Below are positions 5,522 through 31,241 of a stretch of DNA of 64,000 bases, one piece after another. Both the position numbers and the translations under genes were made by a program. Below the pieces are notes generated by a model that worked only from the letters and a program-made list of their open reading frames with translations, made no database searches and was not told the DNA's origin. Numbering within the stretch: the first letter of the stretch is position 1; the number at the start of each line of letters is the position of its first letter. Source of the DNA: Nageia nagi (lineage: Eukaryota > Plantae > Pinophyta); contig JBITNC010000001.1 of assembly GCA_050084985.1 (NCBI GenBank), positions 121,148,001-121,212,000 of the forward strand, in the 5' to 3' direction.

Positions 5522-8452
5522 GATTGAAGGGATTGGGCAGTTGAGTCTTGCTAGTGATGAACCAAGACCGTCATAGAAGATTCCAAAATAGACATCGAAA
5601 ACACTTGAAAATGTTCATCCTAATGAACTCGGGAAAACAGGAACTCGGAGTTCTTATCGAGCACGAGTAGAAAATGGAGCAGTAGAAGGTTAGTTTTAGT
5701 TTCAGTTGATGTTTTTTTAGATGATGGTGAGGACTATTCTTTTGACATGGAACTGAATTTTTCTGTTGCTTTTGAGCCAACTTCCTTTAAGGAGGCTATT
5801 TCCCATGATGTTTGGAAAGAAGCCATGAGGAAGGAGTATGATGCTCTCATCAAGACTGGGATTTGGAAGTTGGTTGATCCTTCTTATGGAACCAAACCAA
5901 TAGATTGCAAGTGGGTCTACTGAAACAAGCACAAATCAGACGACTCTCTTGACAAACACAAAGCGACGCTAGCTGCTAAGGGCTATGCATAGAAAGAAGG
6001 CATTGATTATGATGATATATTTGCTCCTACAGCCAAATTGGCAACCATTCGTTCTTTTTTGGCCATGTCAGTTCAACATAGATGGAAAGTACATCAGATG
6101 GATGTAAAAGAAACATTTCTGAATGGTGATTTGAAGGAAAATGTGTACATGACTCAACTTGAAGGATTTGCAATGAAGGGACATGAACATAAGGTGTGTA
6201 AAATCATCAAATCTTTGTATGGTTTAAAGCAAGCACCTCACACATGGTATGAAAAACTTATTGAAATTTTTTTGAAGATTAATTTCCAACCCTTTAATCT
6301 TGATGATGCAACTTTATTTGTCAAGAAAGTTGGCAAAACAGGTGTATATCTTGTGGTGTATGTAGATGATCTTTTGATAGCAAGGAACAATGAAGGATTC
6401 ATTGCATTCGTGAAACAAGATTTGAAATGATTGATATAGGGCATCTTCATTATTACTTGGGTGTTGATCTAACTCAAGCATCACAACACATTTATTTCCC
6501 AAAAGAAGTATGTTGGAGAATTGTTAAGTAAGTTTGTCATGACTGATTGTAAGCCACTTTCTACTCTAGTGGAACAAAATCTGAAGTTGACATCAATTGA
6601 AGGGAATCAATTCGAAGATGCTGCAAAATATAGGCAGCTAGTTGGAAGTCTCATTTATCTAACCACTACCAGACCCGATATTTCATTTGTGGTTGGTATT
6701 CTATCTTGGTTTATGCACAAACCATGTGAAGGCCATTGGATAGCAGCGAAGAGAGTTGTTCGATATTTGGAGGGGACTCAAGATTTTGGTCTCAAATACT
6801 CCAAGGTACGAGACTTCAAGTTGATTGGATACACTGATTCAAACTTTGATGGTGATAAGGAAAATGGAGTTTCTACTTCAAGTTATCTTATGAGTCTTGG
6901 ATCAACAGTTGTTTCCTGGAGATCACGAAAACAATCATACTCGTGAATTCTACAACTGAGGTAGTGTATGTGGCTGTTGTAGAGGCAACAAAGGAGATTG
7001 TGTGGCTCAGGAAAATCCTTGAAGATTTGTAGGAGGTACAAGTGCTTCCCACTCCGCTTCTGATTGATAATACTTCTGCGATAAAATTGGCTAAGAATCT
7101 ATAGTTTCATGATCAAACTAAGCACATCAACACGAAGTATCATTTGATTCGACATCATGTAGAGGTGAAGACAATTCGGTTGAAACATTGTTCCACTGAA
7201 GAACAAACTGCAAACATCTTCACCAAAGCGCTTGGAATCGAGAAGTTTGAGAAGTTCAGACAAATTCTCGGACTTCAACCTACCCCTTCAGATTAAGGGG
7301 AGAATGCTAAGTTATAATCCTCATGGGTTATTAATTTAACATTTATATTATAATAAGTCACATATTTACGTGTGGCATTAGGAAGTTAAATTAGTTACAT
7401 AGTTATTCAACTACATAATAGTTATACAACTATAATGTTCAATTATATATTGTACACCGTTCTGATTCAATAATCAATCATGGAGTTTACCGATCGCCTT
7501 TCAGTTACAAGTTACATGCTTACAAATACTTTCATATAGGATATGTCTATGATAATGAAATATGATTTGAATTTCACATGTTTGATAATTTGATTACATT
7601 TGCATTTTGATTTTAATGATTAATTAAAATTCCATAAGAATATTTGAAAATTAAAAAATTCAATACTTTTTATATATATTTATAATTTTATTATATTTTA
7701 ATATTGTTGTACCCACTGTACCCAAAATTGGACCCAAGCCGTATCAATCCTGCGAACATGTCCTGCCTACCCCGCCATTCCTATCCCGAAAACTTCGTGG
7801 AACGTAGCTTGTAGCTAGCAGCAACTTTCTTTTAGTTAGATATCTGCAATTTTATAGGAAGATTATCTAAGCTTCAGGAGCTATGTCCATACCTTAATTT
7901 AAAGCTAAGGCAAATGTAACTACATGTTCTACATGTTTTATGCTTCAATGGTTTCATTTACGTACCTGCCATGTTATTCCTTTTATGGTGCCATTGCAGT
8001 CGCTCTTTCCTTCTTTTAATGGTTTGCAGATATTTACTGTCACATGTATTTGTTTTACTGCAAAATTTGATTTAAAATAGCTGTTAAGTAGTCCTTTTGA
8101 GCTCAGTGTATTGTCACCATCATCTTCTTGTTCCTAGTTCTGTTCCTTTGTCTCAACCAAAAAGTTGTAATTTAGTTAGAGGATCCTCCCTTCTCTGGAG
8201 GTCTTTTTGGGTGAAACCTAAGGATTTCATTTTTCAACTATATTGTGATTATGGTGTGCCCTAATCATTAGGATAATCATCAAGGAAAAACAAGAAATAG
8301 AAACGAAAATGTATTAGCCGCATATTTCATGGTTTCTGTCTTTTTTTGGGTTAGCCTCTATGTTTTTAAAAACTTTTATATATCATTAATACTATTTGTT
8401 AACAATGTAATATGAAGAATGTTAATGCTTTTCCTTTCTTTATTCCAAACAG

Positions 8453-10854: not shown

Positions 10855-10924
10855 CATTTGAATCTATAAATTATGGTATCGAGACTTTGCATGTCTTAGT
10901 GAGACTATCAATTTCTGAGCCAAG

Positions 10925-12414
10925 TGATGAGTAAAATAATGGTATTCCAAATTCCACCAGGGCTGTCACTACCCTTCCCCTAGTGATCCTTTCACCTGTT
11001 ATCGTGAAAGGACCAGTTAGCTCGTAGAGCTGGTACTCCAACACTTAGGGCAGATTTAGTTTCCTCTCACTAGTTTTGGAAGACAATATGTGACTCTTTC
11101 ATTTAGTTAATCAATCCGGGCGGTGTTCAAGGCTATATGCTATTGAACTCTATTCTCTCAGCTGTATCTACTTCAAGTAAACATTGCAAAAAGCAAATTT
11201 GCAGAATGGAAAGTTGCAAAATTGAAAGTATAGGAATCTTAAATGCTGAAAGAAATATACACTTGAAATCATCACATTGAATGTAAACTCACACCTGAAT
11301 TAAAAGAACAGTAAAATAAAAGAGTCTTCTACCATTTGGAGTGGGCCCTTGCTCCTCTTGGTGGAAGACTTAGAAGAACTCAGAACTGGAAACTCTTAAC
11401 ATATCACTCTATTATTGTATGCAATTTGTCTTGCACAGAATGTGCTTGACAAATCTAATACAAAGTTTTATTCTCAACAGTCTACACACAATACTTCCTT
11501 AATCTTCTAACCCTCCCTATCGTCAACAATTGAGGTATAAATACCCTCAGTTGTTTAACAATAGGCTGGCCAAGAATAACAATAATCTGAACAATATTCT
11601 GTTATAGAAAATAGAATCACTTATTCTACCAACTAGCTAATGCTAAAATTAACATGCTAACAGTGCTCATGTCTTATCTAAGGAGAGCTGCAATCCCTTT
11701 AAAAAAGGGTGGCTCATCTCAACAAGTCAGCACTATCCTATTTACATCATAAGTAGTTTATTATGCCTAATTTGGAGTCAAACATACTCTATAAAACAAG
11801 AATCATATCTGACTATATATCTAATGTGTTGGAGCCATGCTCCTATAGACTATATTTGGAGTAGCTCACATCACGTAAATATCTGGATCATACAAGGCTG
11901 GAATAGAGCTGGCAATATAGTCAATAATGACGGTCAATTTCTCAAATTTGGGTCTGGAGCGGAAGCTCCGGACGAGTTTGGAGCGGGAGCTCCGGATGAG
12001 TCTGAAATAGAAGCTCCGAACGAGTCTGAAATAGAAGCTTCGGACGAGTTTGGAACAAAAGCTCCAGACAATATAACTCTGCTTTACCAAATGAAGCGTC
12101 CAATTGGTCCGAAGCGGAGTCCAGGACAATGTATACAAGTGAGAATCCATTCAGAATACTTCCTAACAATACTTGCAACTCATTCGAGTTATCAACCATC
12201 ATTCCATGGAGCAAAGAGAAGCATTTTGGTTCAAACAAACACACAAAATAGAATCAATATGCACAAAATACTAATATAAGGAAAGTATGCATTTAACCAT
12301 ATATTAAACAACTAAATAGTCCAACAGTTACAATTAATCCGTCCCATAATGTCCAAATATACAAAATGAACCATCGAATTGTGCCAAAAACTAGGTAATT
12401 ACTGAGACTCATCA
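10925..12414 (-). repeat. 3' LTR of the Athila-like element
   Basis: Direct repeat of 31242-32675; adjacent PPT. Confidence 0.95.
11956..12069. repeat. 24-bp minisatellite in the LTR (5 units; 3 units at 32264-32329)
   Basis: Units such as GGAGCGGAAGCTCCGGACGAGTTT and GAAATAGAAGCTCCGAACGAGTCT. Confidence 0.88.
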
Positions 12415-12773: not shown

Positions 12774-12908
12774 TTCATTGACAACCAATGGTCTGCAAGT
12801 TTTTGCTGAATTTCGAGTGTGGCAAGGTGGCGAACAACACTTATGGCACATATGTTACTTGGACATACAGATTCGAATAATTTATAACAGTTAAACTACT
12901 AATTACCA

Positions 12909-13392
12909 GACGAGCCACCCCTTAGAGCGTGGCTACCGATGGCAACGCCCGACACCGACATAGACTACACGGTTCACAAGCTTGAGTACCGGACTTATGG
13001 GAATCACCCCGGCCAGGCATAACCACTCACAGCCCATCCCGCACGTCTAGCCGGCTCCGCCGTATCCGTCAAGTCCGTAGTTGCATACTGCTAGAGGCCT
13101 CGTGCCTCTAGAGCTGGTCCGACCCCTTGGAGCATCGGACCGGTTTGTCATAGTTACCAGAGTGCCTGGTGCTCACCGCCCAACCAACGACCTTCAAACG
13201 GGTATCACCCCTAAGGTCCCCCTGAGCTTTATTCGCCCATCCATGTCGCCCAGTCCAACCATAGGAACGGCCTCTCAACCTTGTCCGCCATGGTTCCTAA
13301 AGCACGACAGTTTGGGCCCGGAATGGATCCCCGTGTACTAGAGGTTACGCTCTACGTACACTCACCACCCCGGGAGAGGCGGCCCTCTCACA
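12909..13392 (-). repeat. LTR of the left arm
   Basis: Reverse complement of 23807-24290; PPT at 13393-13405. Confidence 0.8.
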
Positions 13393-13456
13393 TTCTCCCC
13401 CACTTAAAGGTGTTGACGACCTCGTCAACAATGCACACCGAGGGGAGGAATTGGTG

Positions 13457-16400
13457 CTAGTCACACCACCAATATTTCTCGTGGCCTTCAGCTAGGAACT
13501 CTTGGATTTTGTCCTCAAAGTTCCAAAGGCTTTCCGCTCTTTCCCACGTATCGTTCTCAATGGTTTCACCTTCCCAACCAACAAGGTATTCGGTTTTCTT
13601 AATCTTGCCAAAACCCCTTGTACGAACACCCTTGATTTCCTTCACTATCTTCTGCGGTCTGTCGATGATACCGGTAGGCGGGCGAGTGGGAACCATTCTC
13701 TCAGGATTTTCTGAATCTTCCACACATGGCCTCAACTGGCTGACATGAAAGACATCATGTATGTGCAGATGACTTGGTAGCTGGATCTTATACGCCACTT
13801 TGCCAATTCGCTTAATCACTCTGAACGGCCCCTCATATCTCCTCGAGAGGGACTTTGACGTTCCCGGTGCAGGCTTGAAGTGGTCTCCATCAATTCTCAA
13901 AAATACCAAGTCCCCAACCTTGAACTCCAACTCCCGTCTCCTCTGATCTGCATTTTTCCGCATCCTCTCCTGAGCCTGTAGTAGAAATGCTCGTGCGGCA
14001 TCTATTCTCTCCTTCCAATCCTCCAGGTACCGAGTTGCCGATGGGCAAGTGCTGAAGTATTCCGGTACCACTGTGTGGGGAGCGATTGGTTGCCTACCTG
14101 TGGCAAGTTCGAATGGAGTGAATTTACTTGAGGCCGACTTCTGGCTATTGTAACTGAATTGTGCAATGTCCAGGAGGTCGGGCCAATTTGTTTGGTCTGA
14201 TGTCACATAATGCCTCAAGTATTCTTCTAGGATCCCATTTACTCTCTCTGTCTGCCCATCTGTCTGTGGATGGTGACTTGTGGACAGAAACAGCTTTGTG
14301 CCCATTATCCTGAATAACGCTGACCAGAAGTTACTAGTGAATCGAGCATCCCTATCCGACACAATGTTCAGTGGTATCCCCCAATATTTCACAACATGCT
14401 TGAAGAAGTATTCGGCTGCCGTTGCCGCTTCGCATGGATACTTACACGGGATGAATGTGGCATACTTAGAGAATCTATCAACCACTACCATAATGCTAGT
14501 ATATCCTTGTACCTCCGGTAAGCTGGTGATAAAGTCCATGCTGACACTCACCCACGGTCTGATAGGTATTGGGAGAGGTTGAAGTAAACCTGCTGGCCGT
14601 TTTCTCTCACTCTTATCTTGTTGGCACAACAGGCAGCTTCTCACATAGCTTTCCACATCGTTGAACATGTTCAGCCAATAGTATCCTCTAGAGATCAATG
14701 CCATCATCCTATCTCTTCCTGGGTGCCCGGCCCAAGGCGAGTCATGACACTCCTTCATTATCTCATTTCTTAGGCCGTCCCACTTCGGCACATAGATCCT
14801 GTTGGCTCCATACAACAATAAACCCATACGGGTTCTGAACCTGGTCAACCGATTCACATTTGCAAATTTATCTGCTGAGGCTACCATGGCTCTGGCCTGC
14901 GGGTCTTTTCCCATCCCCTCTCTGATTCTCGAAACCAAATCCCCTGAAAGCTGTACTTGACCTGGTTGATTTGGCTGCTGATCCTCTTTGGCCAACTCCT
15001 CCTGGCCATTTGTCATCGCAGTGAGGGCACGGGGTGGTTTCTCCCCCACTTGAGCTTGGGCGAGCTCCTGCAAGCCCTCATTAGGATCCTTTAGTTGAGC
15101 CTTACGGCTCAAGGCATCCGTTGCCGCATTCTTCTTGCCTGGGTTGTATCTGAACTCGGCATCATATTCGGCCAAGAAGTTTGCCCACCGTGCCTTCTTG
15201 CCTGTTAGCTTGCTAGATGTCTTAAAATAAGTGTTGGAGATGTCCGTTTTGATCACAAACGGAGTGCCCAAAAGATAGTGTCTCCAAACACGTAAACAGT
15301 GTAAGACTGCCACCATCTCCTTGTCATGCGCGGGGTAGTTTCTCTCCGCGTCTTTCAATTTCCGCAATTCATAAGCGATGGGGTGTCCATCCTGGATCAA
15401 GACCCCACCGATGGCATAATCTGAGGCATCCGTATGCACTTCAAAAGACTTAGAAAAATCAGGCAAGGCTAACACCGGTGATGTTGTAAGTTTGCATTTC
15501 AATTCCTCAAATGCCTGCTGCCGACTTGCTGTCCAAAACCACCTTGTCTGTTTTCTGAGCAACTGAGTGAGGGGGGCTGCTATCTTCGAATATCCACACA
15601 CAAACTTCCTGTAATAGTTGGCTAAGCCCAAAAATTGTCTGAGCTGATGGACATCCTTCGGAGGCTCCCAATCTCGAATGGCATCCAATTTCTTCATCTC
15701 CGGCTTAATCTTTCCACCGCCGACGACATGTCACAGGAAGCTCACTTCAGTTTGTGCAAAGGCTCATTTTTCCTTTTTGACGTAAAGCTCGTTCTCCTTG
15801 AGCTTGTCAAACACCAATGCCAAATGAGTTATGATCCTCTAGGGACTTGCTATAAATCAAAATGTCGTCCAGATATACCAAGACAAACTTATCCAAATAA
15901 GGCCGGAACACATCGTTCATAAGTGTACAAAATGTCGCCGGGGCGTTGCACAAACCGAATGGCATAACCATAAAGTCGAAGGAGCCATATCTTGTCACAC
16001 AGGTTGTTTTTACTTCATCACCCTGTGCGATACGTACTTGGTAATAACCTTGCTTTAAATCAAGCTTCGAGAAGTACACGGCTTTACCCAATCGATCAAA
16101 ACAATCCTCAATGAGTGGGAGTGGGTACTTGTTTTTTATCGTAATTTTGTTAAGGGCCCGGTAGTCCACACACATCCGCAACGACCCGTCTTTCTTTTTC
16201 TGAAATAGCACAGGTGCCCCGTAAGGCGAGTGAGACGGTCTCAAATAACCGGCGGCCATTAACTCTTCCAGCTGCTTCTTTAACTCTGCCATTTCAGCCA
16301 CTGACAGTCTGTACGGTTTGATGGACGGCGGTTTGGCCCCCGGAGTCAACTCAATCTTATGATCGACCGTCCTCCTCGGTGGGAGTCGAGTTGGTAACTC

Positions 16401-18372
16401 CACCGGCATAACATCCCCATATCTCTCCAGTACTTCGTTGATCTCTCCGGGGACTGTTGTCTTCTCCACTTCCTGTTCCTCCCAACCTCCCAACATGGCT
16501 GCTAGAAATAGAGGTTCCCGTTTATTCCTAGAGGCTTTTCTAATGGACATGACAGAGAGGTTTTGGAGGCGACCACTAGACCTAGGCTCAACAAGGTCGA
16601 CCATGCACGAGTAGTCAGGATGCATAATGACCAGCTTCCCGATGTGGGGCATGGCCGCGGCATGGGCAGTATAGATGAAGGATTGACCTAGGACCAGGTC
16701 GAAGTTGAGACTAGGCACCACAAAGAGGATTGTGGTACCAAGCCACTTCCCTACTTGGAGAGACACTTTGGGAGTTCGGCGCAAACTGATTTCCTCTGGC
16801 CGATTAGCAACTTGCAAAGATTCATTGGACTTGTGCGTCTTAAGGCCCAAATCCTTACATAGGCGTTCAGATATATAATTGCTTGACGCACCGCCATCGA
16901 CAAGCGCCACGACAGGTCTACCATTAAGAGTGACGTCCACATAACTGAGAGGATAGTGTTAGGTTTCATCAATATGAGCCGGCTTACCCTCAATGGCTGC
17001 CAAAGCATTCAAAAGTCGAACACCAGGGGCACTTTGAGGGTTCGATGATGTTGAGGCAGTCGTTGTTAGAGCCAACGGTTGGGGAGGATGAGTCACATAG
17101 TATTGGACTGGTTGAGCTTGGGGAGTGGCTAGGTTCATGACATTTAGGCGATTTTGGTGAGGGCATTCTCTAGCAATATGACTGGTGCTATCACACCCGA
17201 AGCACCGCCGTCTGCCTTGTTGCTCATACTCAACCTGCTGCACCTTCTGTGACCGATTACTGTCCTCACCTTGGTGCCCTCTTTTGCCCTTTTTATTCTT
17301 GTCATGCTTGCCCTCTCCTTTCCCAAACCTTTCCTGCTTTCCCCTGTTATCTCTGTTGTCCCGACTGTCACCTGTCCAACCCTTCTTACTTTTCCGCTTA
17401 TCTCCCCAACCTTTCTTTTCTGAACTCACCCCTCTCTTCTCCTCCCTTTTATTGTCCTTTTTCAGCCCAGCCTCTCTATAATCGGTCAACTTTTCTGCCG
17501 CTTGTATTGCTTCGGTGAGCTTGTCGGTTTAGCTCAGCCTTGGCCCAAGGTCGAAGGCCTTTCATAAAGTAATGCAGTTTAACATGCTCTTGCAAGCCCG
17601 AAGTTGCCAATATGTATACTTGGAAGGCCTTGATATATTCTTTTATGGTTCCGGTATGCTGGAGGGCATCCAGCTTTTCCAAGATCTTTATATCTGCATT
17701 GGTGGGCTTGAATTGTTCTCTCAAGAGTTGTTGAAAGTTTTCCCAGGTCTTGCAAGGATCTTCCCCTGTCAATGACGTCGACCGAGTCCTCCACCAAAGT
17801 TTGGCACCACCTTCTAGCAAACCCACCACAATATTGATCTTTTTTCGGTCATCAACCCGAGGAAGCTGACTGAAATAGTGTCCCAAATCCCAAATCCATG
17901 GTTCCAACACCGTAGCTTCTCGTTCCCCACTGCACGCTGTTGGCATTTTCACCTTAATTCGTGCCTCGACTTTGTCTTGGCCTGCTGAGCCAGCTACAAG
18001 TTGTGTCAAAAGGGTCATTTTCTCGCTCATCTCGTGAATTACCCGTCTATACTCACCCACTTGAGTCTCCAGGTCAAAAACACGATTGCCCAGATCTATG
18101 GTCTCTCCACGCATGACCTCGTGCTCCTCAGTAAGGGCAGCATTTTCTGCTTGGAGTCGCACGATCATATCACCATCCCCTACTCTTTCACCACGAGGTT
18201 TTCTTTTATTTTGATCCCTCAGTTCCTTGAACTGTTCCAAATATTTATCCACTGTTATCTGATGTATGACCCGATAAGGAGTTTCCTCCTCGTTTTGAAC
18301 ACCCGGTTCCTGCGGTGCCGTTTCCTGAGGCATCTCTTCCAACTCTATCTCTTCCACTGGCTGAGCAGACAT
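13457..18372 (-). pseudogene. Chromovirus (Galadriel-like) gag-pol, left arm
   Basis: gag AKLWWR, CCHC knuckle CFGCDSTSHIAREC, protease ALVDGGA, RT YLDD, RNase H HTDASD, integrase CHDSPWAGHPG/DRFSK, chromodomain EYLVGWEG...TWE; stops and frameshifts. Confidence 0.94.
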
Positions 18373-18823
18373 CTTGAACAACCCAGCGCGGTCACTAGCA
18401 CAATTCGACACAGGTACACACACACGGACACACTTTACCAAACTTCACGCTTCAAACCTACAACACGAGACATGTAGGTTAGAATACCACACAAGGCGCC
18501 ACGAATTGCTAAGGCAAACAAGGTTGTGCATGAGCAAAAATAAACACACAGCACGAAGCATGCACAAACACACGGTAAGCATCACATCAGTCGGGTCGGG
18601 AAAATGTGATGTGATGCTTACCGTGTGTTTGTGCATGCTTCGTGCTGTGTGTTTATTTTTGCTCATGCACAACCTTGTTTGCCTTAGCAATTCGTGGCGC
18701 CTTGTGTGGTATTCTAACCTACATGTCTCGTGTTGTAGGTTTGAAGCGTGAAGTTTGGTAAAGTGTGTCCGTGTGTGTGTACCTGTGTCGAATTGTGCTA
18801 GTGACTGCGCTGGGTTGTTCAAG

Positions 18824-21800
18824 ATGTCTGCTCAGCCAGTGGAAGAGATAGAGTTGGAAGAGATGCCTCAGGAAACGGCACCGCAGGAACCGGGTGTTCA
18901 AAACGAGGAGGAGGAAACTCCTTATCGGGTCATACATCAGATAACAGTGGATAAATATTTGGAACAGTTCAAGGAACTGAGGGATCAAAATAAAAGAAAA
19001 CCTCGTGGTGAAAGAGTAGGGGATGGTGATATGATCGTGCGACTCCAAGCAGAAAATGCTGCCCTTACTGAGGAGCACGAGGTCATGCGTGGAGAGACCA
19101 TAGATCTGGGCAATCGTGTTTTTGACCTGGAGACTCAAGTGGGTGAGTATAGACGGGTCATTCACGAGATGAGCGAGAAAATGACCCTTTTGACACAACT
19201 TGTAGCTGGCTCAGCAGGCCAAGACAAAGTCGAGGCACGAATTAAGGTGAAAATGCCAACAGCGTGCAGTGGGGAACGGAAGCTACGGTGTTGGAAACAT
19301 GGATTTGGGATTTGGGACACTATTTCAGTCAGCTTCCTCGGGTTGATGACCGAAAAAAGATCAATATTGTGGTGGGTTTGCTAGAAGGTGGTGCCAAACT
19401 TTGGTGGAGGACTCGGTCGACGTCATTGACAGGGGAAGATCCCTGCAAGACCTGGGAAAACTTTCAACAACTCTTGAGAGAACAATTCAAGCCCACCAAT
19501 GCAGATATAAAGATCTTGGAAAAGCTGGATGCCCTCCAGCATACCGGAACCATAAAAGAATATATCAAGGCCTTCCAAGTATACATATTGGCAACTTCGG
19601 GCTTGCAAGAGCATGTTAAACTGCATTACTTTATGAAAGGCCTTCAACCTTGGGCCAAGGCTGAGCTAAACCGACAAGCTCACCGAAGCAATACAAGCGG
19701 CAGAAAAGTTGACCGATTATAGAGAGGCTGGGCTGAAAAAGGACAATAAAAGGGAGGAGAAGAGAGGGGTGAGTTCAGAAAAGAAAGGTTGGGGAGATAA
19801 GCAGAAAAGTAAGAAGGGTTGGACAGGTGACAGTCGGGACAACAGAGATAACAGGGGAAAGCAGGAAAGGTTTGGGAAAGGAGAGGGCAAGCATGACAGG
19901 AATAAAAAGGGCAAAAGAGGGCACCAAGGTGAGGACAGTAATCTGTCACAGAAGGTGCAGCGGGTTGAGTATGAGCAGCAAGGCAGATGGCGGTGCTTCG
20001 GGTGTGATAGCACTAGTCATATTGCTAGAGAATGCCCTCACCAAAATCGCCTAAATGTCATGAACCTAGCCACTCCCCAAGCTCAACCAGTCCAATACTA
20101 TGTGACTCATCCTCCCCAACCGTTGGCTCTAACAACGACTGCCTCAACATCATCGAACCCTCAAAGTGCCCCTGGTGTTCGACTTTTGAATGCTTTGGCA
20201 GCCATTGAGGGTAAGCCGGCTCATATTGATGAAAGCTAACACTATCCTCTCAGTTATGTGGATGTCACTCTTAATGGTAGACCTGTCGTGGCGCTTGTCG
20301 ATGGCGGTGCGTCAAGCAATTATATATCTGAACGCCTATGTAAGGATTTGGGCCTTAAGACGCACAAGTCCAATGAATCTTTGCAAGTTGCTAACCGGCC
20401 AGAGGAAATCAGTTTGCGCCGAACTCCCAAAGTGTCTCTCCAAGTAGGGAAGTGGCTTGGTACCACAATCCTCTTTGTGGTGCCTAGTCTCAACTTCGAC
20501 CTGGTCCTAGGTCAATCCTTCATCTATACTGCCCATGCCGCGGCCATGCCCCACATCGGGAAGCTGGTCATTATGCATCCTGACTACTCGTGCATGGTCG
20601 ACCTTGTTGAGCCTAGGTCTAGTGGTCGCCTCCAAAACCTCTCTGTCATGTCCATTAGAAAAGCCTCTAGGAATAAACGGGAACCTCTATTTCTAGCAGC
20701 CATGTTGGGAGGTTGGGAGGAACAGGAAGTGGAGAAGACAACAGTCCCCGGAGAGATCAACGAAGTACTGGAGAGATATGGGGATGTTATGCCGGTGGAG
20801 TTACCAACTCGACTCCCACCGAGGAGGACGGTCGATCATAAGATTGAGTTGACTCCGGGGGCCAAACCGCCATCCATCAAACCGTACAGACTGTCAGTGG
20901 CTGAAATGGCAGAGTTAAAGAAGCAGCTGGAAGAGTTAATGGCCGCCGGTTATTTGAGACCGTCTCACTCGCCTTACGGGGCACCTGTGCTATTTCAGAA
21001 AAAGAAAGACGGGTCGTTGCGGATGTGTGTGGACTACCGGGCCCTTAACAAAATTACGATAAAAAACAAGTACCCACTCCCACTCATTGAGGATTGTTTT
21101 GATCGATTGGGTAAAGCCGTGTACTTCTCGAAGCTTGATTTAAAGCAAGGTTATTACCAAGTACGTATCGCACAGGGTGATGAAGAGAAAACAACCTGTG
21201 TGATAAGATATGGCTCCTTCGACTTTATGGTTATGCCATTCGGTTTGTGCAACGCCCCGGCGACATTTTGTACACTTATGAACGATGTGTTCCGGCCTTA
21301 TTTGGATAAGTTTGTCTTGGTATATCTGGACGACATTTTGATTTATAGCAAGTCCCTAGAGGATCATAAGACTCATTTGGCATTGGTGTTTGACAAGCTC
21401 AAGGAGAACGAGCTTTACGTCAAAAAGGAAAAATGTGCCTTTGCACAAACTGAAGTGAGCTTCCTGTGACATGTCGTCGGCGGTGGAAAGATTAAGCCGG
21501 AGATGAAGAAATTGGATGCCATTCGAGATTGGGAGCCTCCGAAGGATGTCCATCAGCTCAGACAATTTTTGGGCTTAGCCAACTATTACAGGAAGTTTGT
21601 GTGTGGATATTCGAAGATAGCAGCCCCCCTCACTCAGTTGCTCAGAAAACAGACAAGGTGGTTTTGGACAGCAAGTCGGCAGCAGGCATTTGAGGAATTG
21701 AAATGCAAACTTACAACATCACCGGTGTTAGCCTTGCCTGATTTTTCTAAGTCTTTTGAAGTGCATACGGATGCCTCAGATTATGCCATCGGTGGGGTCT

Positions 21801-23742
21801 TGATCCAGGATGGACACCCCATCGCTTATGAATCGCGGAAATTGAAAGACGCGGAGAGAAACTACCCCGCGCATGACAAGGAGATGGTGGCAGTCTTACA
21901 CTGTTTACGTGTTTGGAGACACTATCTTTTGGGCACTCCGTTTGTGATCAAAACGGACAACATCTCCAACACTTATTTTAAGACATCTAGCAAGCTAACA
22001 GGCAAGAAGGCACGGTGGGCAGACTTCTTGGCCGAATATGATGCCGAGTTCAGATACAACCCAGGCAAGAAGAATGCGGCAGCGGATGCCTTGAGCCGTA
22101 AGGCTCAACTAAAGGATCCTAATGAGGGCTTGCAGGAGCTCGCCCAAGCTCAAGTGGGGGAGAAACCACCCCGTGCCCTCACTGCGATGACAAATGGCCA
22201 GGAGGAGTTGGCCAAAGAGGATCAGCAGCCAAATCAACCAGGTCAAGTACAGCTTTCAGGGGATTTGGTTTCGAGAATCAGAGAGGGGATGGAAAAAGAC
22301 CCGCAGGCCAGAGCCATGGTAGCCTCAGCAGATAAATTTGCAAATGTGAATCGGTTGACCAGGTTCAGAACCCGTATGGGTTTATTGTTGTATGGAGCCA
22401 ACAGGATCTATGTGCCGAAGTGGGACGGCCTAAGAAATGAGATAATGAAGGAGTGTCACGACTCGCCTTGGGCCGGACACCCAGGAAGAGATAGGATGAT
22501 GGCGTTGATCTCTAGAGGATACTATTGGCCGAACATGTTCAAGGATGTGGAAAGCTATGTGAGAAGCTGCCTGTTGTGCCAACAAGATAAGAGTGAGAGA
22601 AAACGGCCAGCAGGTTTACTTCAACCTCTCCCAATACCTGTCAGACCGTGGGTGAGTGTCAGCATGGACTTTATCACCAGCTTACCGGAGGTACAAGGAT
22701 ATACTAGCATTATGGTAGTGGTTGATAGATTTTCTAAGTATGCCACATTCATCCCGTGTAAGTATCCATGCGAAGCGGCAACGGCAACCGAATACTTCTT
22801 CAAGCATGTTGTGAAATATTGGGGGATACCATTGAACATTGTGTCGGATAGGGATGCTCGATTCACTAGTAACTTCTGGTCAGCGTTATTCAGGATAATT
22901 GGCACAAAGCTGTTTCTGTCCACAAGTCACCATCCACAGACAGATGGGCAAACAGAGAGAGTAAACGGGATCCTAGAGGAATACTTGAGGCATTATGTGA
23001 CATCAGACCAAACAAATTGGCCCGACCTCCTGGACATTGCACAATTCAGTTACAATAGCCAGAATTCGGCCTCAAGTAAATTCACTCCATTCGAACTTGG
23101 CACGGGTAGGCAACCAATCGCTCCCCACACAGTGGTACCGGAATACTTCAGCACTTGCCCATCGGCAACTCGGTACCTGGAGGATTGGAAGGAGAGAATA
23201 GATGCCGCACGAGCATTTCTACGGCTCAGGAGAGAATGCGGAAAAATGCAGATCAGAGGAGACGGGAGTTGGAGTTCAAGGTTGGGGACTTCGTATTTTT
23301 GAGAATTGATGGAGACCACTTCAAGCCTGCACCGGGAACATCAAAGTCCCTCACGAGGAGATATGAGGGGCCGTTCAGAGTGATTAAGCGAATTGGCAAA
23401 GTGGCGTATAAGATCCAGTTACCAAGTCATCTGCACATACATGATGTTTTTCATGTTAGCCAGTTGAGGCCATGTGTGGAAGATTCGGAAAATCCTGAGA
23501 GAATGGTTCCCACTCGCCCGCCTACCGGTATCATCGACAGACCGCAGAAGATAGTGAAGGAAATCAAGGGTGTTCGTACAAGGGGTTTCGGCAAGATTAA
23601 GAAAACCGAATACCTTGTTGGTTGGGAAGGTGAAACCATTGAGAACGATACGTGGGAAAGAGCGGAAAGCCTTTGGAACTTTGAGGACAAAATCCAAGAG
23701 TTCCTAGCTGAAGGCCATGAGAAATATTGGTGGCGTGACTAG
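18824..23742 (+). pseudogene. Chromovirus (Galadriel-like) gag-pol, right arm
   Basis: Same domains as the left arm; stops at 20237 and 21467, frameshifts at ~19279, ~19677 and ~23221. Confidence 0.94.
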
Positions 23743-23806
23743 CACCAATTCCTCCTTTTGGTGTGCATTGTTGACGAGGTCGTCAACACCTTTAAGTGGG
23801 GGAGAA

Positions 23807-24290
23807 TGTGAGAGGGCCGCCTCTCCCGGGGTGGTGAGTGTACGTAGAGCGCAACCTTTAGTACACGGGGATCCATTCCGGGCCCAGACTGTCGTGCTTT
23901 AGGAACCATGACGGACAAGGTTGAGAGTCCGTTCCTATGGTTGGACTGGGCGACACGGATGGGCGAATAAAGCTCAGGGGTACCTTAGGGGTGATACCCG
24001 TTTGAAGGTCGTTGGTTGGGCGGTGAGCACTAGGCACTTTGGTAACTATGACAAACCGGTTCGATGCTCCAAGGGGTCGGACTAGCTCTAGAGGCACAAG
24101 GCCTCGAGCAGTATGCAACTACGGACTTGACGGATACGGCGGAGCCGGCTAGACGTGCGGGACGGGCCGTGAGTGGATATGCCTGGCAGGGGTGATTCCC
24201 ATAAGTCCGGTACCCAGGCTTGTGAACCGTGTAGTCTATGTCGGTGCCGGGCGTTACCATCGGTAGCCACGCTCTAAGGGGTGGCTCGTC
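23807..24290 (+). repeat. LTR of the right arm (no terminal CA; followed by TGGTA)
   Basis: Begins TGTGAG directly after PPT AAGTGGGGGAGAA; end inferred from the imperfect terminal inverted repeat. Confidence 0.8.
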
Positions 24291-24981
24291 TGGTAGTGAA
24301 ATGACATACCATTTAATGGCGGATGGTGGCAGAGCGCAAAGATGTACGTCTGAAGCTGCCGATCTCTTCCTTTGAATCATATGTCACATGAGAGACACTT
24401 GACACGTGTTAGGCATTGGTTTGTGTGAAGGGAAAAGGTGGCACTTCGTCTTATTCATGGCATGGAAAAGTGTGACAGCTAGCTCTTGAATCCTGTGCCA
24501 TGGAGTGGTGGGTGTGAACATGTGGATATGTGGACGTACCTTGTTTGCCAAGCTATCATATGGTTTGGTTGTTATGTTGCACTCTCGACGGGTGATGTTA
24601 CCTTGAAAATTGGGCCATCACATTATAATTGAAATCTCGTTTGGCGCATTGTACGAAGGTCATGGTGAGGAAATTGACAGCTATTGACGTGTCCGAAGAA
24701 ACGTTGTTCGAAGCTACAGTCACGACACCTATGTAAGATTCATGCCAACTCTTGAAACTATAATAGTTCCTGCTGAAATGAGAATCCTACACGTGACCTT
24801 ATGTTATTATTATTAAAATATATATATATATAATTTTTTTCTCTTTTTTTTTTTAAATTGACAAAAGCTCCTTGTGTTTCCAGTGTTGGTGGTTTTCACC
24901 CGCAAGTGCCAGTTTCTTGGTTTTCGCTTACCGATTGCCACGTTCATTGGAATCACTTATTTATAAGACTGATCAATGGAA

Positions 24982-27900
24982 TTATTTAACGATACTCGAG
25001 GAGGAAGAGGCTTCCCCGGATGTATTAAGATCTGCTATCCTTATCTGCTGCGTGAATTGCTCCAATACTGGTACAGTATACGGGCGAAGGTGATGTCCAT
25101 TAACCAGGAGAATCCTCCGAGAGTCGTCAATCGGTTGCAACTGGATTGAACCATTAGGGAATATTTGAAGAATCTTATATGGCCCCAACCATTGTGTCTG
25201 GAGCTTCCCTATGAAATCATTATAGCGGGAATCAAATAATAAAGCCCATTCTCCTACCCGAAATTGGTTCTATTTCAGATTTTTGTCATGCCAGCTCATT
25301 TAGCTGTAGTAGTCTATTTTTCAGTATTTCTATAATGTCCATCCCAGCCTCTAGGGTTGTTCTCAGTGTCTAGAGCTCAAATTGTATTGGCAATAAAGGC
25401 TTCTTACAAAATACTAACTCATATGGAGTAAACCCAATGGTGGATTTCCACATAGTATTGTATGCCCAGATTGCTGCAGGAAGCCTGGATACCCAATCCC
25501 TTCTATGTGAAGCTACTGTCTTGGTCAATATATTTTCCAGTTCTCTGTTAGTAACTTCAACTTGTCCATTCGTCTGTGGATGATAAGGCGAAGCCTTCTT
25601 ATGTCGGATTTGGTACTGGTTCACAAAATGTTGAATTGTTTTTGACATGAACTGTGGACCTTGATTAGAAACCAGAAACCGAAGAGCTCCAAATCTTTGC
25701 ATAATGTTATTATACAGAAAATCTACCACATATTCTTTCTTGGCATGTGCCAAGGCTACTACTTCTACCCACTTAGTGGCATAATCAGTACAGACTAGTA
25801 TGTGTTTCTTACCTTGAGATGGAGGATTAATCGGCCCGACAAAGTCGATACTCCATTGTTCAAATGGTTCAAGCATCCATTGCGGTTGTAATGGCATTTG
25901 AGTAGTAGCAGTAGGCCTACCCATTCGTTGACACTTATCACATTGCCTCACATATTTTCTAATGTCTTTGTGCATAGAAGGCCAAAAATAACCAGCTCCT
26001 AGGACTTTATGGATGGTTCGTTTATCAGAATAATGACCTCCTGAAGGCTCATCATGGCATGCATGGATGATATCAAATACCTCGTTTGTCTGAAGACACC
26101 TTCGGAGTGCATGATCAGGTCCATATTTAAACAACAACCCATCCAACCACTTATATGATGCACTTTGTCTAATCAATTGTTTCCTCTGATTTGGAGACAA
26201 ATGTGGAGGAAGTTTCCCAGTGGCTAAATAATTGGCAATATTTGCAAACCAGGGAGACTGTGCAGATATTGCAAAAAGTAAATTCATCTGGAAAGGTATC
26301 TTCCACCATCTCATCTTCCCGGACAATATTCAATCTGGATAAGAAATCTGCGACCTCATTTGCCTTTCCAGGCTTATCAATGATAGTCACATTAAACTCC
26401 TGTAATAGTAGCAACCATCTCACAACTCTTCCACTTACCACAGGTTTGTTCATGATGGCAGCATGGTCAGTATGAACAAATACTTGGTATCTTGTGATAT
26501 GGAGTCTAAATTTATTGATGGCATACGTTACTGCTAGGAATTCTTTCTCTGCAGTAGTATAATTTCTTTCAGCTCCCACCAAATTTTTACTTATGTAATA
26601 AATAGCATATGGGGACTTACTTGGTTCTTCTTGTCTTAGGATTGCTCCAATAGTATAATTTGAGGCATCCATATGAATGTAGAATGGTAGTTCCCAATTG
26701 GGACCTCTCAACACATGAGTTGTGGTGAGTTTTTCCTTCATAATCTGAAAAGCTTCTTCACAATCAGCTGTCCATTCAAATTCATTGTCCTTATGCAGCA
26801 GGGCAAATAATGGGGTTGCTGTTTAACTAATTTTTTTTTTAAATCTTCTGTAGTATCCGTCATGTCCCAAGAAGTTCCGGACATTTGCTTGAGTCTCAAG
26901 TTGAGGGAGTTGCTTGATGACTTCTATTTTCTTGGGATCCACCTTAATCCCTTGGGCTGAAATATGATGGCCCAAAACTATTCCCTCCTGTACAAGCATG
27001 AAGCATTTTTCATGGCTTAAGGATAGATTATGCACTTTACATCTCACCAAAACTTTTTCTAAGTTCCTCAATGCATCTCCAAAAGTGTTGCCATACACCG
27101 TGAAGTCATCCATGTACACTTCAACGCAATCATTAGTCAAATATGAAAAGATTGCTAGTACAACTCTTTGGAAAGTTGTTGGTGCATTGCACAAGTCAAA
27201 TGGAAGAACTTTATAAGCATATGTACCCCATGCACAAGTAAATGTGGTCTTGCCTTGATTTTCCTCTGCAATTTGTATTTGGTTATAGCCACTAAATCCA
27301 TCTAGGAAGGAGAAATATTGCTTACCAGACAAAATGTCTAACACTTGGTCAATGAAAGGTAATGGGAAGTGGTTCTTGAATGTAGCTTTATTGAGAGCTT
27401 TGTAGTCAACACAAACCCTCCATTTGCCGTTTTTCTTTGACACAATAACCAATGGTGAGACCCATTGACTATCTGAGATAGGATAGATGAATTTAGCTTT
27501 CAATAGCCTTTCAATTTCAGTCTTAACAACTTCTTTAAGTGTAGGATTTACCCATCTGGGAGGCTGCTGGACTGGTCTGGTTTCATCCGTATATATACGA
27601 TGGGTACAAATCTCCGGATGAATACCTTTCATGTCTGAATATTCCCAGGTGAAAGCCTCAGTATGGGCTCTCAAGACATCAAAAAGCTTCTTCTCTTGTT
27701 CATCTGTCAACCAACTGCTGATATTAAGAGTCTTTCCTGGTAATACTTCAACAGTCTTGATCCCAGGTTTGGTCAGATTACTTTGTTCTGGAAGTTGAAC
27801 TAGGGAATTCAAAAGACAAGAGTGTGGAAATAAAAAATGGAATACTCTTGTTCTTTCCCTGAAAGTATCCCCTTTTGGAACAATGTGAGTAAGGGGGCAT

Positions 27901-30900
27901 TTGAGCATTGCCAAAAATGTTGCCTGCTCTTCTGATGGAACATTGAAAATAATGCTTTGTAGTGGGTTAACCACTGTATTTCCCTTCTCTTCATCACTGC
28001 CCTCTGATTCTTCTTTGTGTGGCTCCGAACAGTGGTACTATATTTGTTCCAGATTAGGATCTTCTTCTATCTCTTCAACATGGTCCTTGATGGTAATGGT
28101 TGCTAATGTTGCAAAAGTCTCATGTGCATCTGTGTTAGACTCATCAACCCATATCTGGTTGTGATATTCCAACGTTGGTTGGGCAGGTGGGTACAAAGAA
28201 AGTGTCTTTGTGTTTAGGCCATTAGAAATGGTCATATCTCCAGACCTATAGTTGATGTATGCAACTGCAGTGGCTAACCAAGGTCTTCCCAATATGATTG
28301 GATATCTAGAAGGCTGTACTCTTGTCTTTAGAAGCAAAAAATCTACTAGATAGCTCCAGGAATCTACTGTTATTTGGACATCTTCCACGATTCCTTCTGG
28401 CTTGGCCACTATTCGGTTTGCCATCTGCAACATAGTTGAAGTGGGCTGTATATTTGACAGGAATAGTTTTTGAGACATCCAAAATCATGCCATTTATTGC
28501 TACTCCCAAGTCAACCAAAACATTGGGCTCTTTAGTATTCCTATGAAAATTGTAATAATAGGATTACCTGGATTGCCATACTAAGGAATTACCAAATTTC
28601 CAGCCAAAAGATCAGCTACTTTATCATCTACTTTAACAGTCTTTGGATAGACCTTTCTTTTTGCTCATTTTTGGATGCATAGTTCTTTAACCAACTTGTT
28701 TAGCTTAGGAACTTGTTTGATTGCTTGTAATATAGGTATCAAGATATTCAATTTCCTTATCTCTTGCAGCAGTTCTAATTCAATTTCTTGGGGTTTTTCA
28801 ATCAGCTTTTTTGGATACGGAGTAACTTCTGTCCGGAGCTCCTTGTTGTTTGCAGGTAGAATTGTTTCTGTTGGTGGCTCCTGACTGTCTTCCATGTGTT
28901 CTTTTGGAGATTCATCTGAGCTGTCCACCTCTACTTCTGTGATGATAGGAGGTACAGGATTTGGCAATTTTTTACCAGATCGAAGCTCAATTTCATTGCA
29001 TTGGATAGCATTTACTGATGCAGTGTCTCCTTGATCAATTTGATAGGCAGGTGCTGGAGCTTGCTTGTTATTATTTGGGTTAGGAACAGGTTGGGCTAGA
29101 AGAGCAGGTTGCTTTGGAGGTTGTTGCTGCTGATTCATTTGCTGTTGTTGATTAAATGGTGGTGGTAGCCAACCTTGCCTTCGCTGTCCTTGTACTGGAT
29201 GATTACTCCAGTTCTGCCGATTTTGTCCTCCATATTGCTGCCATTGTGGATTCCATTGTGAAGGATCCCATCCATAACCTTGCCAATCTTGAGTTACCAT
29301 CCATGGGGAATATGGTGGCATGCTCCACCAATTCTGATTCGTTGGTCTAGAAAAATAGGGATTTGGATTCCCTTGGAAATTACTATTTTCCCTAGGCCCC
29401 ATTGCTCCCATATAGTTCATGTTCATGTTTGGAGCTGCTACAGACATTTGTGCTATCCTTAGATAGTCACAATCATCTGTTGGATGGTCATTATTGCATA
29501 GGTTGCATATATGGTTAGTGTTCAGAGGACATTCATCTAGAACATGTTTCTTTCGGCACCTAGGACAGTACCTTGTTGAAAACTCATCTGTGGTCTGCTT
29601 TTTCGAATTTGTAATTTGAAGAGAATCCTGGATCTCCTTTAGTTTATTTGCTGTTTCCTTCAGTTGACTTAATTCAAACAGAACATCAGTCCCGAAGTTT
29701 GCAAATTCCTCTTTAATTTCACTTGCCAATCCAGTCTCTACCCGACTATCATTCTGAAACCTGTCACTTCTCTTATGTGTTCTGGTCCTTGAATAGTTTC
29801 TGTAGAGTTCCACAATTTCATCAAGAGCTGACTTATTGACATTACCCTTTCCCATCATATTTAGGACTTCCAATGTGGAATCCAGAAGCCCTCTTAGAAA
29901 GATGGTTTTGGAGAATTCGGGATCCATGGTCGTGCCAACTCTTTTTTGAACAAATAAGAATCTGTCAAGGTAATCTTCAAGGCTTTCTGATGCTGCTTGA
30001 TTGAGTCAAAACAGTTCATCTTTCCTATCTTTGACTCGACAGTATTCCTGGTATTTTTCCAGAAAAGCTTTCTCCATTTCATCCCAAGTGGAGATGGAAT
30101 CTGGAGGAAGTCCCATGAACCACCTCATTGCATTGTCTTTTAGAGTGGATGGAAAAAGTTTTAATTTTTGTTCATCCATCTCATAGTCATATGTTCTGCA
30201 CAGTATCTTGAATTCAAATAGAAACTGATCTAGATCCTCACTAGAAAGACCTCGAAAGGTAGGTAAGACTGACGGTGAAATGTTCTTCATAGGAGCCTGA
30301 GTCCCTGCGGCGAGCCTTATGGGATAAGTGAATGTTTGAGTAGAGGGATTAGTACCTCCCACTCCAGAACCACCACTTCCTCTAGACATATTGACAAGTG
30401 GATTAGTATATATCTTCTTTATTTGCTCAAACTCTAGTAATCTCACCTTGCTGTAATAAATATGGAAGATTATCTTGGCTGTTTCTTTTTCTGCTTCAGA
30501 ATCACTTTCACTGGAAAGAGGATGAATATGAGTAACGGGTAATGGTAAAGATGCATTGGAGAAATGGATGGATGGATGAAAAGTAGCAATGACTGTATCC
30601 GGAGCAGGCTCAATTGTCTCTGTTTGGAGAGTTAAGTCTACAAACCGAATAGGAAATGGAGGGGATTTATCAGTAAATCTCCTATATTGCTTAGGTGGAT
30701 CTGAGAATCTCAGAAATGGTGGTGATGATGGACTAATGAAAGTTGTCTCTTCTGCAGCGACTGGGTGCTCAGATTTTGGAGTATGGTCTGCCTCCTCTTC
30801 CAAAATTGTTGGATCAATTTCTTCCAATTCTTCCACAAGTCTAGGCTTTGGCCTAGTTTCTTCTAGTTGCTCCACCTGATGTTCTTCGACAACTATACCA

Positions 30901-31055
30901 CTTCCCTTTTCTTCCACAACCTTTTCTGAACTCAACTTTTTAGTTTTGGGGGGTTTTAGTTGTGTTTTCTGGACTGATTTTCCTACAGCTACTTTCTTAC
31001 TACTGTCTCCTTTACTATTGACAAATCTTCCTTTATCATCTCTTGATCTATTCAT
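24982..31055 (-). pseudogene. Frameshifted gag-pol of the Athila-like element
   Basis: gag (KLKLFPSTLKDNAMRWF), protease (IILGRPWL), RT (CVDYKALN, YMDD), RNase H (DAS), integrase (CHD..GGH, CDKCQ, YHPQTNGQ, GPY) in gypsy order. Confidence 0.93.
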
Positions 31056-31241
31056 ACATTCTCAAGCAAATAAGGACACCAATCTATCACAACTTAGACA
31101 ACAGTTCACTGCAACTCATTCTGTGAATAATTGAGAAACCAGGATGGCACCCGATTTCAAACTGGCTTTGTCAAGTCCCCTATCCTTAAGAAGTACAGGG
31201 ATAGTTCAATTAACACCGTTCCCCGACAATGATGCCAAAAA

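Follow-up and report, generated by a model that had tools for sequence, protein, structure and literature searches.

An 11.4-kb head-to-head chromovirus palindrome in Nageia nagi, consistent with fold-back of a minus strand at the primer-binding site

Organization of the palindrome

We analysed a 64-kb stretch of Nageia nagi DNA (64,000 nucleotides; the window). Self-BLAST gave a single inverted match at 12904-24295 with 98.3% identity, which bears out the claim of a preliminary description that two ~5.7-kb inverted arms surround a 17-nt loop. The left arm (12904-18589; 5686 bp, minus strand) and the right arm (18607-24295; 5689 bp, plus strand) are separated by the loop at 18590-18606. Aligned over 5681 columns, the arms differ by 75 substitutions (58 of them transitions) and 5 indels. 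The first mismatch lies 199 nt from the centre, so that the inner stem is perfect for 199 bp.

Read outward, each arm consists of leader, gag, protease, reverse transcriptase (RT), RNase H, integrase, chromodomain, polypurine tract (PPT) and a 489-bp LTR, with the domains assigned by Pfam. The left LTR (12904-13392, minus strand) starts with TGTGAGAG at 13392 and ends with TGGTA at 12904. The final TGGTA of the right LTR (23807-24295, plus strand) is located at 24291-24295, and the CA expected before it is absent. The 3′ PPTs are found at 13393-13405 (left arm, minus strand) and 23794-23806 (right arm, plus strand). The two LTRs are inverted and a 5′ LTR is absent, as had been claimed along with the outward order of the arms; the two direct LTRs of an integrase-made insertion were not found.

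The gag-pol of the right arm (18824-23742, plus strand) is broken. Common to both arms are a frame change in gag near 19670-19722 and stops at 20237-20239 and 21467-21469. The right arm alone has lost 1 bp at 19279 and 4 bp at 23223, and the left arm alone 2 bp at 15829. The order gag-protease-RT-RNase H-integrase, a C-terminal chromodomain and Pfam matches in both arms (chromodomain E-values 1e-6 and 6.5e-6) identify a Ty3/gypsy chromovirus, whose best solved relative was Ty3 Gag-Pol (E=8.8e-94). The left RNase H-integrase ORF contains YLVGWEG at residue 715, in agreement with the chromodomain motif (Y/f)(L/Y)(I/V)kWkg of Galadriel (group II; PMC3350952). An integrase tree of 24 rows (22 of 120 matches plus two window proteins) placed the element in a group of 18 rows (100/100) that includes pine and eudicot proteins, none of them a labelled Galadriel reference, and the nearest named integrases were likewise from pine and eudicots. 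Membership of the Galadriel clade is thus putative. The element resembles Galadriel-clade chromoviruses in domain order, group II chromodomain motif and tRNA-Met-type letters of the primer-binding site (PBS), but its LTR ends without CA, and its RNase H-integrase linker is ~30 aa longer and holds a PPT copy. Of the tRNA-Met PBS that Galadriel elements have behind the 5′ LTR, only two cut halves are present.

Searches of viral contigs returned no protein relative and 0 matches for two DNA patterns, and genome contigs gave one match, in a bacterial chromosome, which was taken as chance. Metagenome contigs gave 43 loci with identities of 33-62%, too distant to reveal the LTR end.

The centre and the PBS letters

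Our preferred reading, developed below, is that a minus strand folded back at the centre of the palindrome (18586-18610), where ATCA (18586-18589) and TGAT (18607-18610) enclose the loop. ATCAG at this position is presumably the inner part of a tRNA-iMet-type PBS. Similar PBSs are present in the window after the LTR end at 48445 and beside 39695; no tRNA genes were found in the 64 kb. TGGTA closes both arms on the outside, and the fold is at ATCAG. Judged by their letters, these would be two overlapping parts of one PBS-type 9-mer, and the extent of each arm seems to be that of a single minus-strand cDNA with the LTR end and the PBS as its limits. This reading of the PBS is built on the two cut halves, since the LTR-PBS-leader join of the chromovirus family was not among the joints and loose ends listed in the contigs of public runs.

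The priming repeat is just 4 nt long and the leader contains 18 such repeats, which counts against the preferred reading. When the 112 nt at the end of the minus strand were folded, no stable fold-back emerged (z=−0.38), so the 4-nt pairing would not be a strong structure.

The host element and the junctions

The palindrome is nested in an older Athila-like element on the minus strand, which comprises a 3′ LTR (10925-12414; target-site duplication [TSD] CCAAG at 10920-10924), a broken gag-pol (25370-31061) and a 5′ LTR (31242-32675; CCAAG at 32676-32680). Both LTRs and the TSD have been retained around the palindrome, and K2P between the LTRs is 0.045. Athila elements are non-chromovirus gypsy elements with long LTRs, a long 3′ region and a tRNA-Asp-type PBS. 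The host element has 1.4-1.5-kb LTRs with a TSD and a PBS that seems to resemble the tRNA-Asp type, and is a putative Athila element.

The empty host site was seen in contigs of three public runs (X1, X2 and X3), which may come from other species (best share of words, 0.28). In X2 and X3 contigs, position 12907 is followed by 9 other letters and then by an exact 21-nt match to 24296-24316. Two X1 contigs have a 20-nt match to 12888-12907 and then 10 other letters before 24297. Host copies in all three runs join the flanks with ~9 bases between them, which supports the earlier view that the locus does not consist of two independent insertions. We conclude that the 11.4-kb palindrome is genuine and entered as a single insertion.

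An assembly artefact, whether from fold-back reads or from a misjoin of two distant copies, would agree with the inspection of the run contigs, which showed neither reads nor contigs spanning the centre or a junction. However, the arms differ at 75 sites, CG/CHG sites account for 16 of the 23 inner differences (an enrichment with P=0.0003 against the corrected background), the flanks adjoin in other host copies, and the host LTRs and TSD have been kept around the insertion. We consider an artefact very improbable. The preliminary description had likewise argued from the arm differences for persistence and against an artefact; the empty host sites and the CG/CHG enrichment uphold the latter, but a reading of the LTR differences as time since insertion is not supported, for the reasons given in the next section.

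At the left junction, TACC (12904-12907, plus strand) is common to the host and the element end, as read from loose ends of host contigs; the chance of a 4-base overlap here is ~0.008. The right junction shows no such overlap. The host has lost ~9 bases and, as stated previously, the flanks (CTAAT and GTGAA) show no duplication. The TG..CA ends and the 4-6-bp TSD of an integrase-made insertion were not found, the ends being TGGTA. The lost bases, the left overlap and the missing duplication point to entry of the palindrome by end-joining and not by integrase.

The ends could also be read differently: the palindromic cDNA may have formed as we propose, with TGGTA as its natural LTR end (TG..TA), and integrase may have inserted it aberrantly, one end being finished by host repair. 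Both arms end at the identical base, the right junction lacks an overlap, and the LTR start is weakly mirrored in register with 24295. This mirror would fit a natural TG..TA end and counts against our preferred reading; 50 of 5668 windows score equally. An aberrant integrase reaction nevertheless seems highly improbable, because it would have to lose ~9 bases without the 4-6-bp duplication of surveyed plant elements (93.4% 5 bp, in a survey that selected for TSDs; PMC6317226), leaves the left overlap to chance, and does not account for ATCAG at the centre completing the PBS motif.

An overlap at one junction without duplication would also result if a normal copy had been present first, a later break near the PBS had removed its 5′ LTR, the end had folded back and copied the element, and ectopic conversion had altered the outer left arm. 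Fold-back at breaks through short microhomology has been described (10.1101/2024.03.07.583931), but the local fold-back duplications described in the available text of that report are mostly 5-34 bp. This course further requires a break at the PBS, copying that ended exactly at the element end, a deletion confined to the first ~9 host bases, and conversion as an additional event; the right end, moreover, lacks a CA terminus. We give it little credence.

Divergence between the arms

The divergence of the arms is stepped, with 0.6% in the inner 3.7 kb and 2-4% in the outer 2 kb. The LTRs differ at 21 of 489 positions and the interior at 54 of 5192 (1.04%), mostly by transitions, which reproduces the ~21 LTR substitutions and ~1% interior divergence reported before. 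Within the interior, divergence was 0.63% in the inner and 2.05% in the outer part, with region limits that were set after the data had been seen. The preliminary description contained neither this unevenness nor the nesting in an older element, and it did not explain how the fold or the insertion came about.

Among all coding differences, 25 of 49 were synonymous (15.0 expected, P=0.002). The outer part accounted for 17 of 28 (8.6 expected, P=0.0008), leaving 11 non-synonymous differences, and the inner part for 6 of 14 (4.1 expected, P=0.2). Near-fixed differences from family contigs, tabulated from the 40 best rows, were shared by the arms in 10 cases and arm-specific in 2 in the interior, with 0 shared and 9 arm-specific in the LTR (Fisher P=0.0002). 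The synonymous-rich outer differences, together with arm-specific LTR sites (9/9) against a shared interior (10/12), suggest that the outer arms are likely to derive from two family members, in which case the outer differences would be no measure of age. The inner 0.63% is a better age guide than the LTR differences. Beyond 22700, all five polarised amino-acid changes and the 4-bp loss are on the right arm. The inner part has six derived amino-acid changes on the left arm versus two on the right, a distribution that counts against our preferred reading.

Two other accounts of the divergence were tried and rejected. CG/CHG content does not yield the LTR excess (21 differences seen, 7.6 expected), and purely neutral decay from one template is at odds with the synonymous excess.

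The step was placed within 22246-22503 (95% support set; best position 22458) and may mark a template boundary. It is located 82-340 nt behind a second, exact copy (13 nt) of the 3′ PPT. This internal copy is found in the lengthened RNase H-integrase linker (22152-22164, plus strand) and is also exact in the left arm (15039-15051, minus strand). The chance of an exact internal copy is 2.6×10−4, and we regard it as a candidate central PPT at which plus-strand priming is putative. Against this part of the preferred reading, the 95% set for the step does not include the copy itself (log-likelihood drop of 2.98), and the copy is missing in 15 of 15 distant loci and in 93 of 94 proteins.

A patch of raised divergence within the inner part (19796-20019, plus strand; 7 substitutions in 224 sites, ~1 expected) requires an extra step in the preferred reading. 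It would fit an unconverted remnant if two complete minus strands, A and B, had cross-primed via ATCA/TGAT to give one arm entirely from A and one entirely from B, and the inner 3.7 kb had later been homogenised by arm-to-arm gene conversion, with one patch left out. A single step of cross-priming suffices for a two-ended duplex, divergence does grow away from the centre, and conversion in plant palindromes has been reported (PMC7023750). In the available text on yeast single-stranded DNA (ssDNA) inversions, only 16% had matching barcodes, so that most did not arise from one molecule (10.1101/2024.03.07.583931). We still hold cross-priming with conversion to be unlikely. Of the 8 mapped interior changes that the arms share, 6 are synonymous, which fits a donor lineage and not converted decay, and divergence rises abruptly near the PPT copy instead of gradually. 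Moreover, judged by the 11 non-synonymous outer differences, the outer arms leave room for little decay after insertion, and three shared breaks are many in comparison.

Proposed origin

We propose, with a probability of about 0.6, that the palindrome arose when a minus strand folded back at the PBS, was completed with sequence of a co-packaged genome and was captured at a break in the older retrotransposon. The traces expected of such a capture, namely ATCA/TGAT around 17 nt (putatively native to the donor), a 4-base overlap and the loss of ~9 bases, are all present. In this sequence of events, minus strand A would have run from the LTR end to the PBS without receiving the second strand transfer, and its 3′ end, TGAT, would have paired with ATCA 17 nt away. 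The right arm would correspond to the native molecule, whose minus strand carries the loop, and the left arm to the fold-back (plus-strand) copy. The folded strand would then have copied the leader, gag, RT and RNase H of A to just past the candidate central PPT, which would explain why the inner 3.7 kb of the two arms hardly differ. In the left arm, the outer 2 kb, where the two-source pattern is observed, would have come from a sister genome B, either through a plus segment begun at the central PPT or through annealing to the minus strand of B. Finally, the PBS-tailed 3′ end may have paired with 4 host bases at a break, leaving the observed scar by the action of presumed repair enzymes, and the opposite end may have been joined without overlap at the cost of ~9 host bases. 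Since then the two arms, both of them broken, have aged independently.

Comparison with known systems

Fold-back of ssDNA followed by capture at a break has been described in yeast (Yu et al., 10.1101/2024.03.07.583931), with a short inverted microhomology, a small gap and a 0-4-bp overlap at the break as here. The insertions in the available part of that report measure tens to ~150 bp, with Ty sequences excluded from the counts, whereas the present arms are 5.7 kb long and bounded by retroelement replication signals. Ty1 cDNA is also captured at breaks independently of integrase, and 40 of 56 3′ LTR inserts had extra cDNA-only bases (PMC11372161); the available text describes fragments and no whole-element palindrome. 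A supply of one cDNA by two co-packaged family members, old ones included, is paralleled by the pairwise recombination of ONSEN copies in plant particles (PMC5668417), and central PPTs interrupt plus-strand synthesis in the plant element EVADE (PMC7197481). According to the available parts of these reports, however, both are Ty1/copia elements, and the ONSEN products are normal two-LTR copies.

The complex LTR insertions of Sabot and Schulman 2007 (PMC1950507) are, in the available text, likewise oversized cDNAs from two parent RNAs inserted as one piece. Those insertions have a head-to-tail layout with three LTRs, of which the outer ones are nearly identical, and a 5-bp TSD, whereas our palindrome is head-to-head, with two inverted LTRs probably from different donors and neither a 5′ LTR nor a TSD. 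The marks of a template switch (a third internal LTR, direct orientation and a flanking TSD) were not found. SISYPHUS inversions, as far as they are described in the source available, are autointegration circles with the inverted part between two LTRs.

If our reading is correct, a single locus preserves four steps in the replication of plant retrotransposons for which particles and yeast are otherwise the only sources: failed second strand transfer, two co-packaged genomes, a central plus-strand start and integrase-free entry. Its signature (whole elements in inverted orientation that carry PBS letters at each end and turn at the PBS through a very short loop) would be searchable. It would also offer LTR families a route to their own hairpin silencers. 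Mu killer and endogenous inverted repeats such as IR71 are likewise long transposon-derived inverted repeats with potential hairpin RNA against the family (PMC10827316, PMC11624286). In the available accounts, Mu killer comes from a DNA transposon and its transcription has been shown, whereas both LTR promoters point outward here. The locus is probably inert, and any role would be that of a putative hairpin-RNA source. More speculatively, PBS fold-back might be a recurring side reaction of LTR reverse transcription that yields whole-element palindromes, with a template boundary marking the central PPT and with read-through from host promoters turning them into self-made killer loci that silence their own family; we regard this generalization as doubtful. 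At present there is a single dead copy.

For loci of this kind, LTR-to-LTR dating would be misleading. The locus also shows that plant genomes can retain a palindrome of 11 kb even when its loop measures 17 nt and its innermost 199 bp pair perfectly.

Structure and coding state of the palindrome

Self-BLAST of the window gave one long inverted match (12904–24295; 98.3 % identity), bearing out the 11.4-kb head-to-head palindrome with a 17-nt loop proposed in the preliminary description. The left arm (12904–18589, minus strand) and the right arm (18607–24295, plus strand) flank the loop at 18590–18606. Read outward, each arm carries the leader, gag, protease, RT, RNase H, integrase, chromodomain, polypurine tract (PPT) and a 489-bp LTR. 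The arms differ by 75 substitutions and 5 indels over 5681 columns, and pairing is perfect for the first 199 bp outward from the centre; the earlier counts of about 21 substitutions in the LTR, roughly 1 % divergence internally and mostly transitions (58/75) between the arms were correct. Both arms are broken, and three of the breaks are common to both, namely a gag frame change and two stops (20237–20239 and 21467–21469 in right-arm coordinates). The RT stop was absent from family contigs covering that site in three public sequencing runs (X1, X2 and X3). We conclude that the insertion is real and a single accident of reverse transcription, recorded in unusually readable form.

The element is a chromovirus and, judged by its sequence, probably Galadriel-like. 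It contains the Galadriel chromodomain motif given in PMC3350952, and its integrase groups with pine and eudicot integrases, none of which is a labelled Galadriel reference.

Empty host site and junction scar

The palindrome sits within the 3′ region of an older minus-strand Ty3/gypsy element, the host. Seven of nine sequencing runs contained part of the window (at best 0.28 of its words), and these runs may come from other individuals or species. We compared four runs at the right arm and its flank and four at the left junction, five different runs in total. Host copies without the insertion were visible as loose ends, where a run contig departs from the window sequence. One contig each from X2 and X3 departed after 12907 and, following nine other letters, continued exactly with 24296–24316; the same flank-to-flank join was found from the opposite side in two X1 contigs. 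Measured against these varying host copies, rather than the insertion's own pre-insertion site, about 9 host bases were lost. Nothing was duplicated, in agreement with the earlier claim that a target-site duplication (TSD) is absent. At the left junction, TACC is common to the host and the element end (chance about 0.008). From the loss, the lack of duplication and this overlap we conclude that the scar is one of end-joining. The insertion lacks the features of normal LTR elements as given in PMC6317226.

Entry by integrase via TG..TA ends is quite improbable. That the LTR naturally ends in TG..TA is a possible alternative to a primer-binding-site reading of the end letters: in register with 24295 the LTR start shows a weak mirror, a score equalled by 50 of 5668 windows. 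CA is absent from the expected LTR-end place in both arms.

Exactly at the break (12899–12907, 24296–24300), the empty site in X2 and X3 contains a 4-nt loop enclosed by 5-bp inverted repeats, which may have favoured breakage.

Uneven arm divergence and two probable donors

Divergence between the arms rose outward from 0.63 % across the inner 3678 sites to 2.05 % across the outer 1514 internal sites and 4.3 % within the LTR, with the inner and outer limits set on divergence after inspection of the data. The 21 LTR differences compare with 7.6 expected from CG/CHG content, which rules out this content as the cause of the excess. Synonymous changes made up 25 of the 49 coding differences (15.0 expected from a context-matched background; P 0.002). 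They were in excess in the outer part (17/28 vs 8.6 expected; P 0.0008) but not in the inner part (6/14 vs 4.1).

Against 120 protein relatives, all five polarised amino-acid changes beyond 22700 fell on the right arm (two more were ambiguous), and this arm has additionally lost 4 bp in that part; inside 22700, six fell on the left arm, two on the right and one was ambiguous. We further scored sites at which at least 85 % of the family depth was unlike the arm compared. Ten such interior sites were common to both arms and two arm-specific, whereas in the LTR none was common and nine were arm-specific (P 0.0002 vs interior). These counts draw on the best 40 of 1715 rows for the right arm and its flank and the best 40 of 58 for the left junction. 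The comparison comprised 26 rows within the right arm and 18 from the left LTR, and left out 5 host rows, 17 LTR rows judged by eye to be below 85 % and two interior sites at which the left arm is gapped. The polarised right-arm changes, the family-site pattern and the synonymous excess together point to two donors: an aged one, A, which both the right arm and the inner left arm resemble, and a healthier one, B, apparently the source of the outer left arm.

Inner differences were enriched at CG/CHG (16/23 vs a background share of 0.33; P 0.0003), so the inner arms are separate aged DNA and not a read folded on itself, in line with the preliminary description, which had argued against a fold-back read. 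The adjacency of the flanks in other host copies also speaks against an erroneous joining of two copies from distant places, and an assembly or read artefact is, on both counts, very improbable. Arm divergence had also been read as time since insertion; this suits the CG/CHG-rich inner differences but not the outer and LTR excess, which points to the second donor. Should the inner differences postdate the insertion, the palindrome would have about one-seventh of the host's age.

Over the right LTR (23807–24295), family contigs are far deeper in the first ~330 bp than in the final ~155 bp. Several of their loose ends were met in more than one run. Both features suggest that many subfamilies share the front of the LTR.

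Proposed fold-back at the primer-binding site

TGGTA terminates both arms, and the fold is located at ATCA-G. TGGTA and ATCAG overlap to give the 9-mer TGGTATCAG, which we take to be the start of a tRNA-iMet-type primer-binding site (PBS); we infer that TGGTA and the centre letters are PBS parts. Similar letters lie two bases behind the LTR's CA in two other window elements. The family's native LTR–PBS join was not among the run-contig rows listed.

We favour, at a probability of roughly 0.6, a mechanism with putative enzymes in which minus strand A would have folded back at the PBS, been completed from co-packaged genome B near a candidate central PPT and, once finished, been captured at a chromosome break. 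Each arm would cover what a completed minus strand covers, from LTR end to PBS, and ATCA/TGAT would be the 4-nt repeat where the 3′ end of that strand turned back. The predicted ATCA/TGAT pairing is weak, and the leader contains 18 4-nt repeats of this kind. That two minus strands primed each other, with later conversion, is unlikely. Followed along the minus strand of the window, the inserted molecule begins at 24295, passes the loop and ends at 12904; its 3′ end is thus the one bearing the 4-base overlap, a geometry that fits fold-back and capture. A chromosomal break followed by fold-back of a normal copy is quite improbable.

An exact copy of the 13-nt 3′ PPT lies at 22152–22164 and in the left arm (chance 2.6×10−4), within an RNase H–integrase linker (22075–22270) ~30 residues longer than that of relatives; with this copy the family may have acquired a central PPT of its own. 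The divergence step was best placed at 22458 (95 % set 22246–22503), 82–340 nt behind this copy. Flaps in HIV and Ty1 are about 100–130 nt. A central PPT initiates a plus strand, part of which later becomes displaced to form a flap (PMC7197481), and a fold-back strand running slightly past the candidate central PPT before meeting genome B DNA would give the observed step. Against this reading count the position of the copy outside the 95 % set and its absence from 15/15 distant loci and 93/94 proteins. A 224-bp patch at 19796–20019 (7 differences vs about 1 expected) would need a further step, e.g. patchy heteroduplex repair.

Each ingredient of the proposed mechanism has a precedent in earlier reports: two-parent cDNAs (PMC5668417, PMC6894440), complex head-to-tail insertions (PMC1950507), Ty1 intermediates that were captured (PMC11372161) and, at breaks, insertions formed by fold-back (10.1101/2024.03.07.583931). 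The titles and abstract openings listed by full-text searches, with subscription journals sparsely covered, gave no account of a whole LTR element mirrored at the PBS.

Predicted transcription and neighbouring repeats

Neither arm is functional, and the LTR promoters of both face outward. If transcription began in the host 5′ LTR, it would run through the right arm in antisense and through the left arm in sense orientation, so that the RNA would form a predicted 5.7-kb hairpin comparable to Mu killer (PMC10827316, PMC11624286).

The host is complete in outline (10920–32680), with a PBS, a PPT, TSD CCAAG and two minus-strand LTRs (10925–12414 and 31242–32675; K2P 0.045). In both LTRs a unit of 24 bp is repeated in tandem (4.9 copies at 11952–12069, 2.1 at 32272–32321). 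The long LTRs and the PBS look Athila-like. A minus-strand Ty1/copia-type element (33652–40244) has two ~520–550-bp LTRs, 80 % alike, and a PBS-like motif beside 39695. A short element (48269–50695) is bounded by 175-bp direct repeats (48269–48443 and 50521–50695; 92.6 %), with a PBS-like motif at 48445; its internal ORFs had no Pfam match, and it looks non-autonomous. Several old inverted matches (73–88 %) link 3184–7199 with 43813–52127, probably two decayed, opposite-orientation copies of one repeat family. Two-copy tandem units lie at 41958–42364 (198 bp) and 61346–61562 (108 bp).
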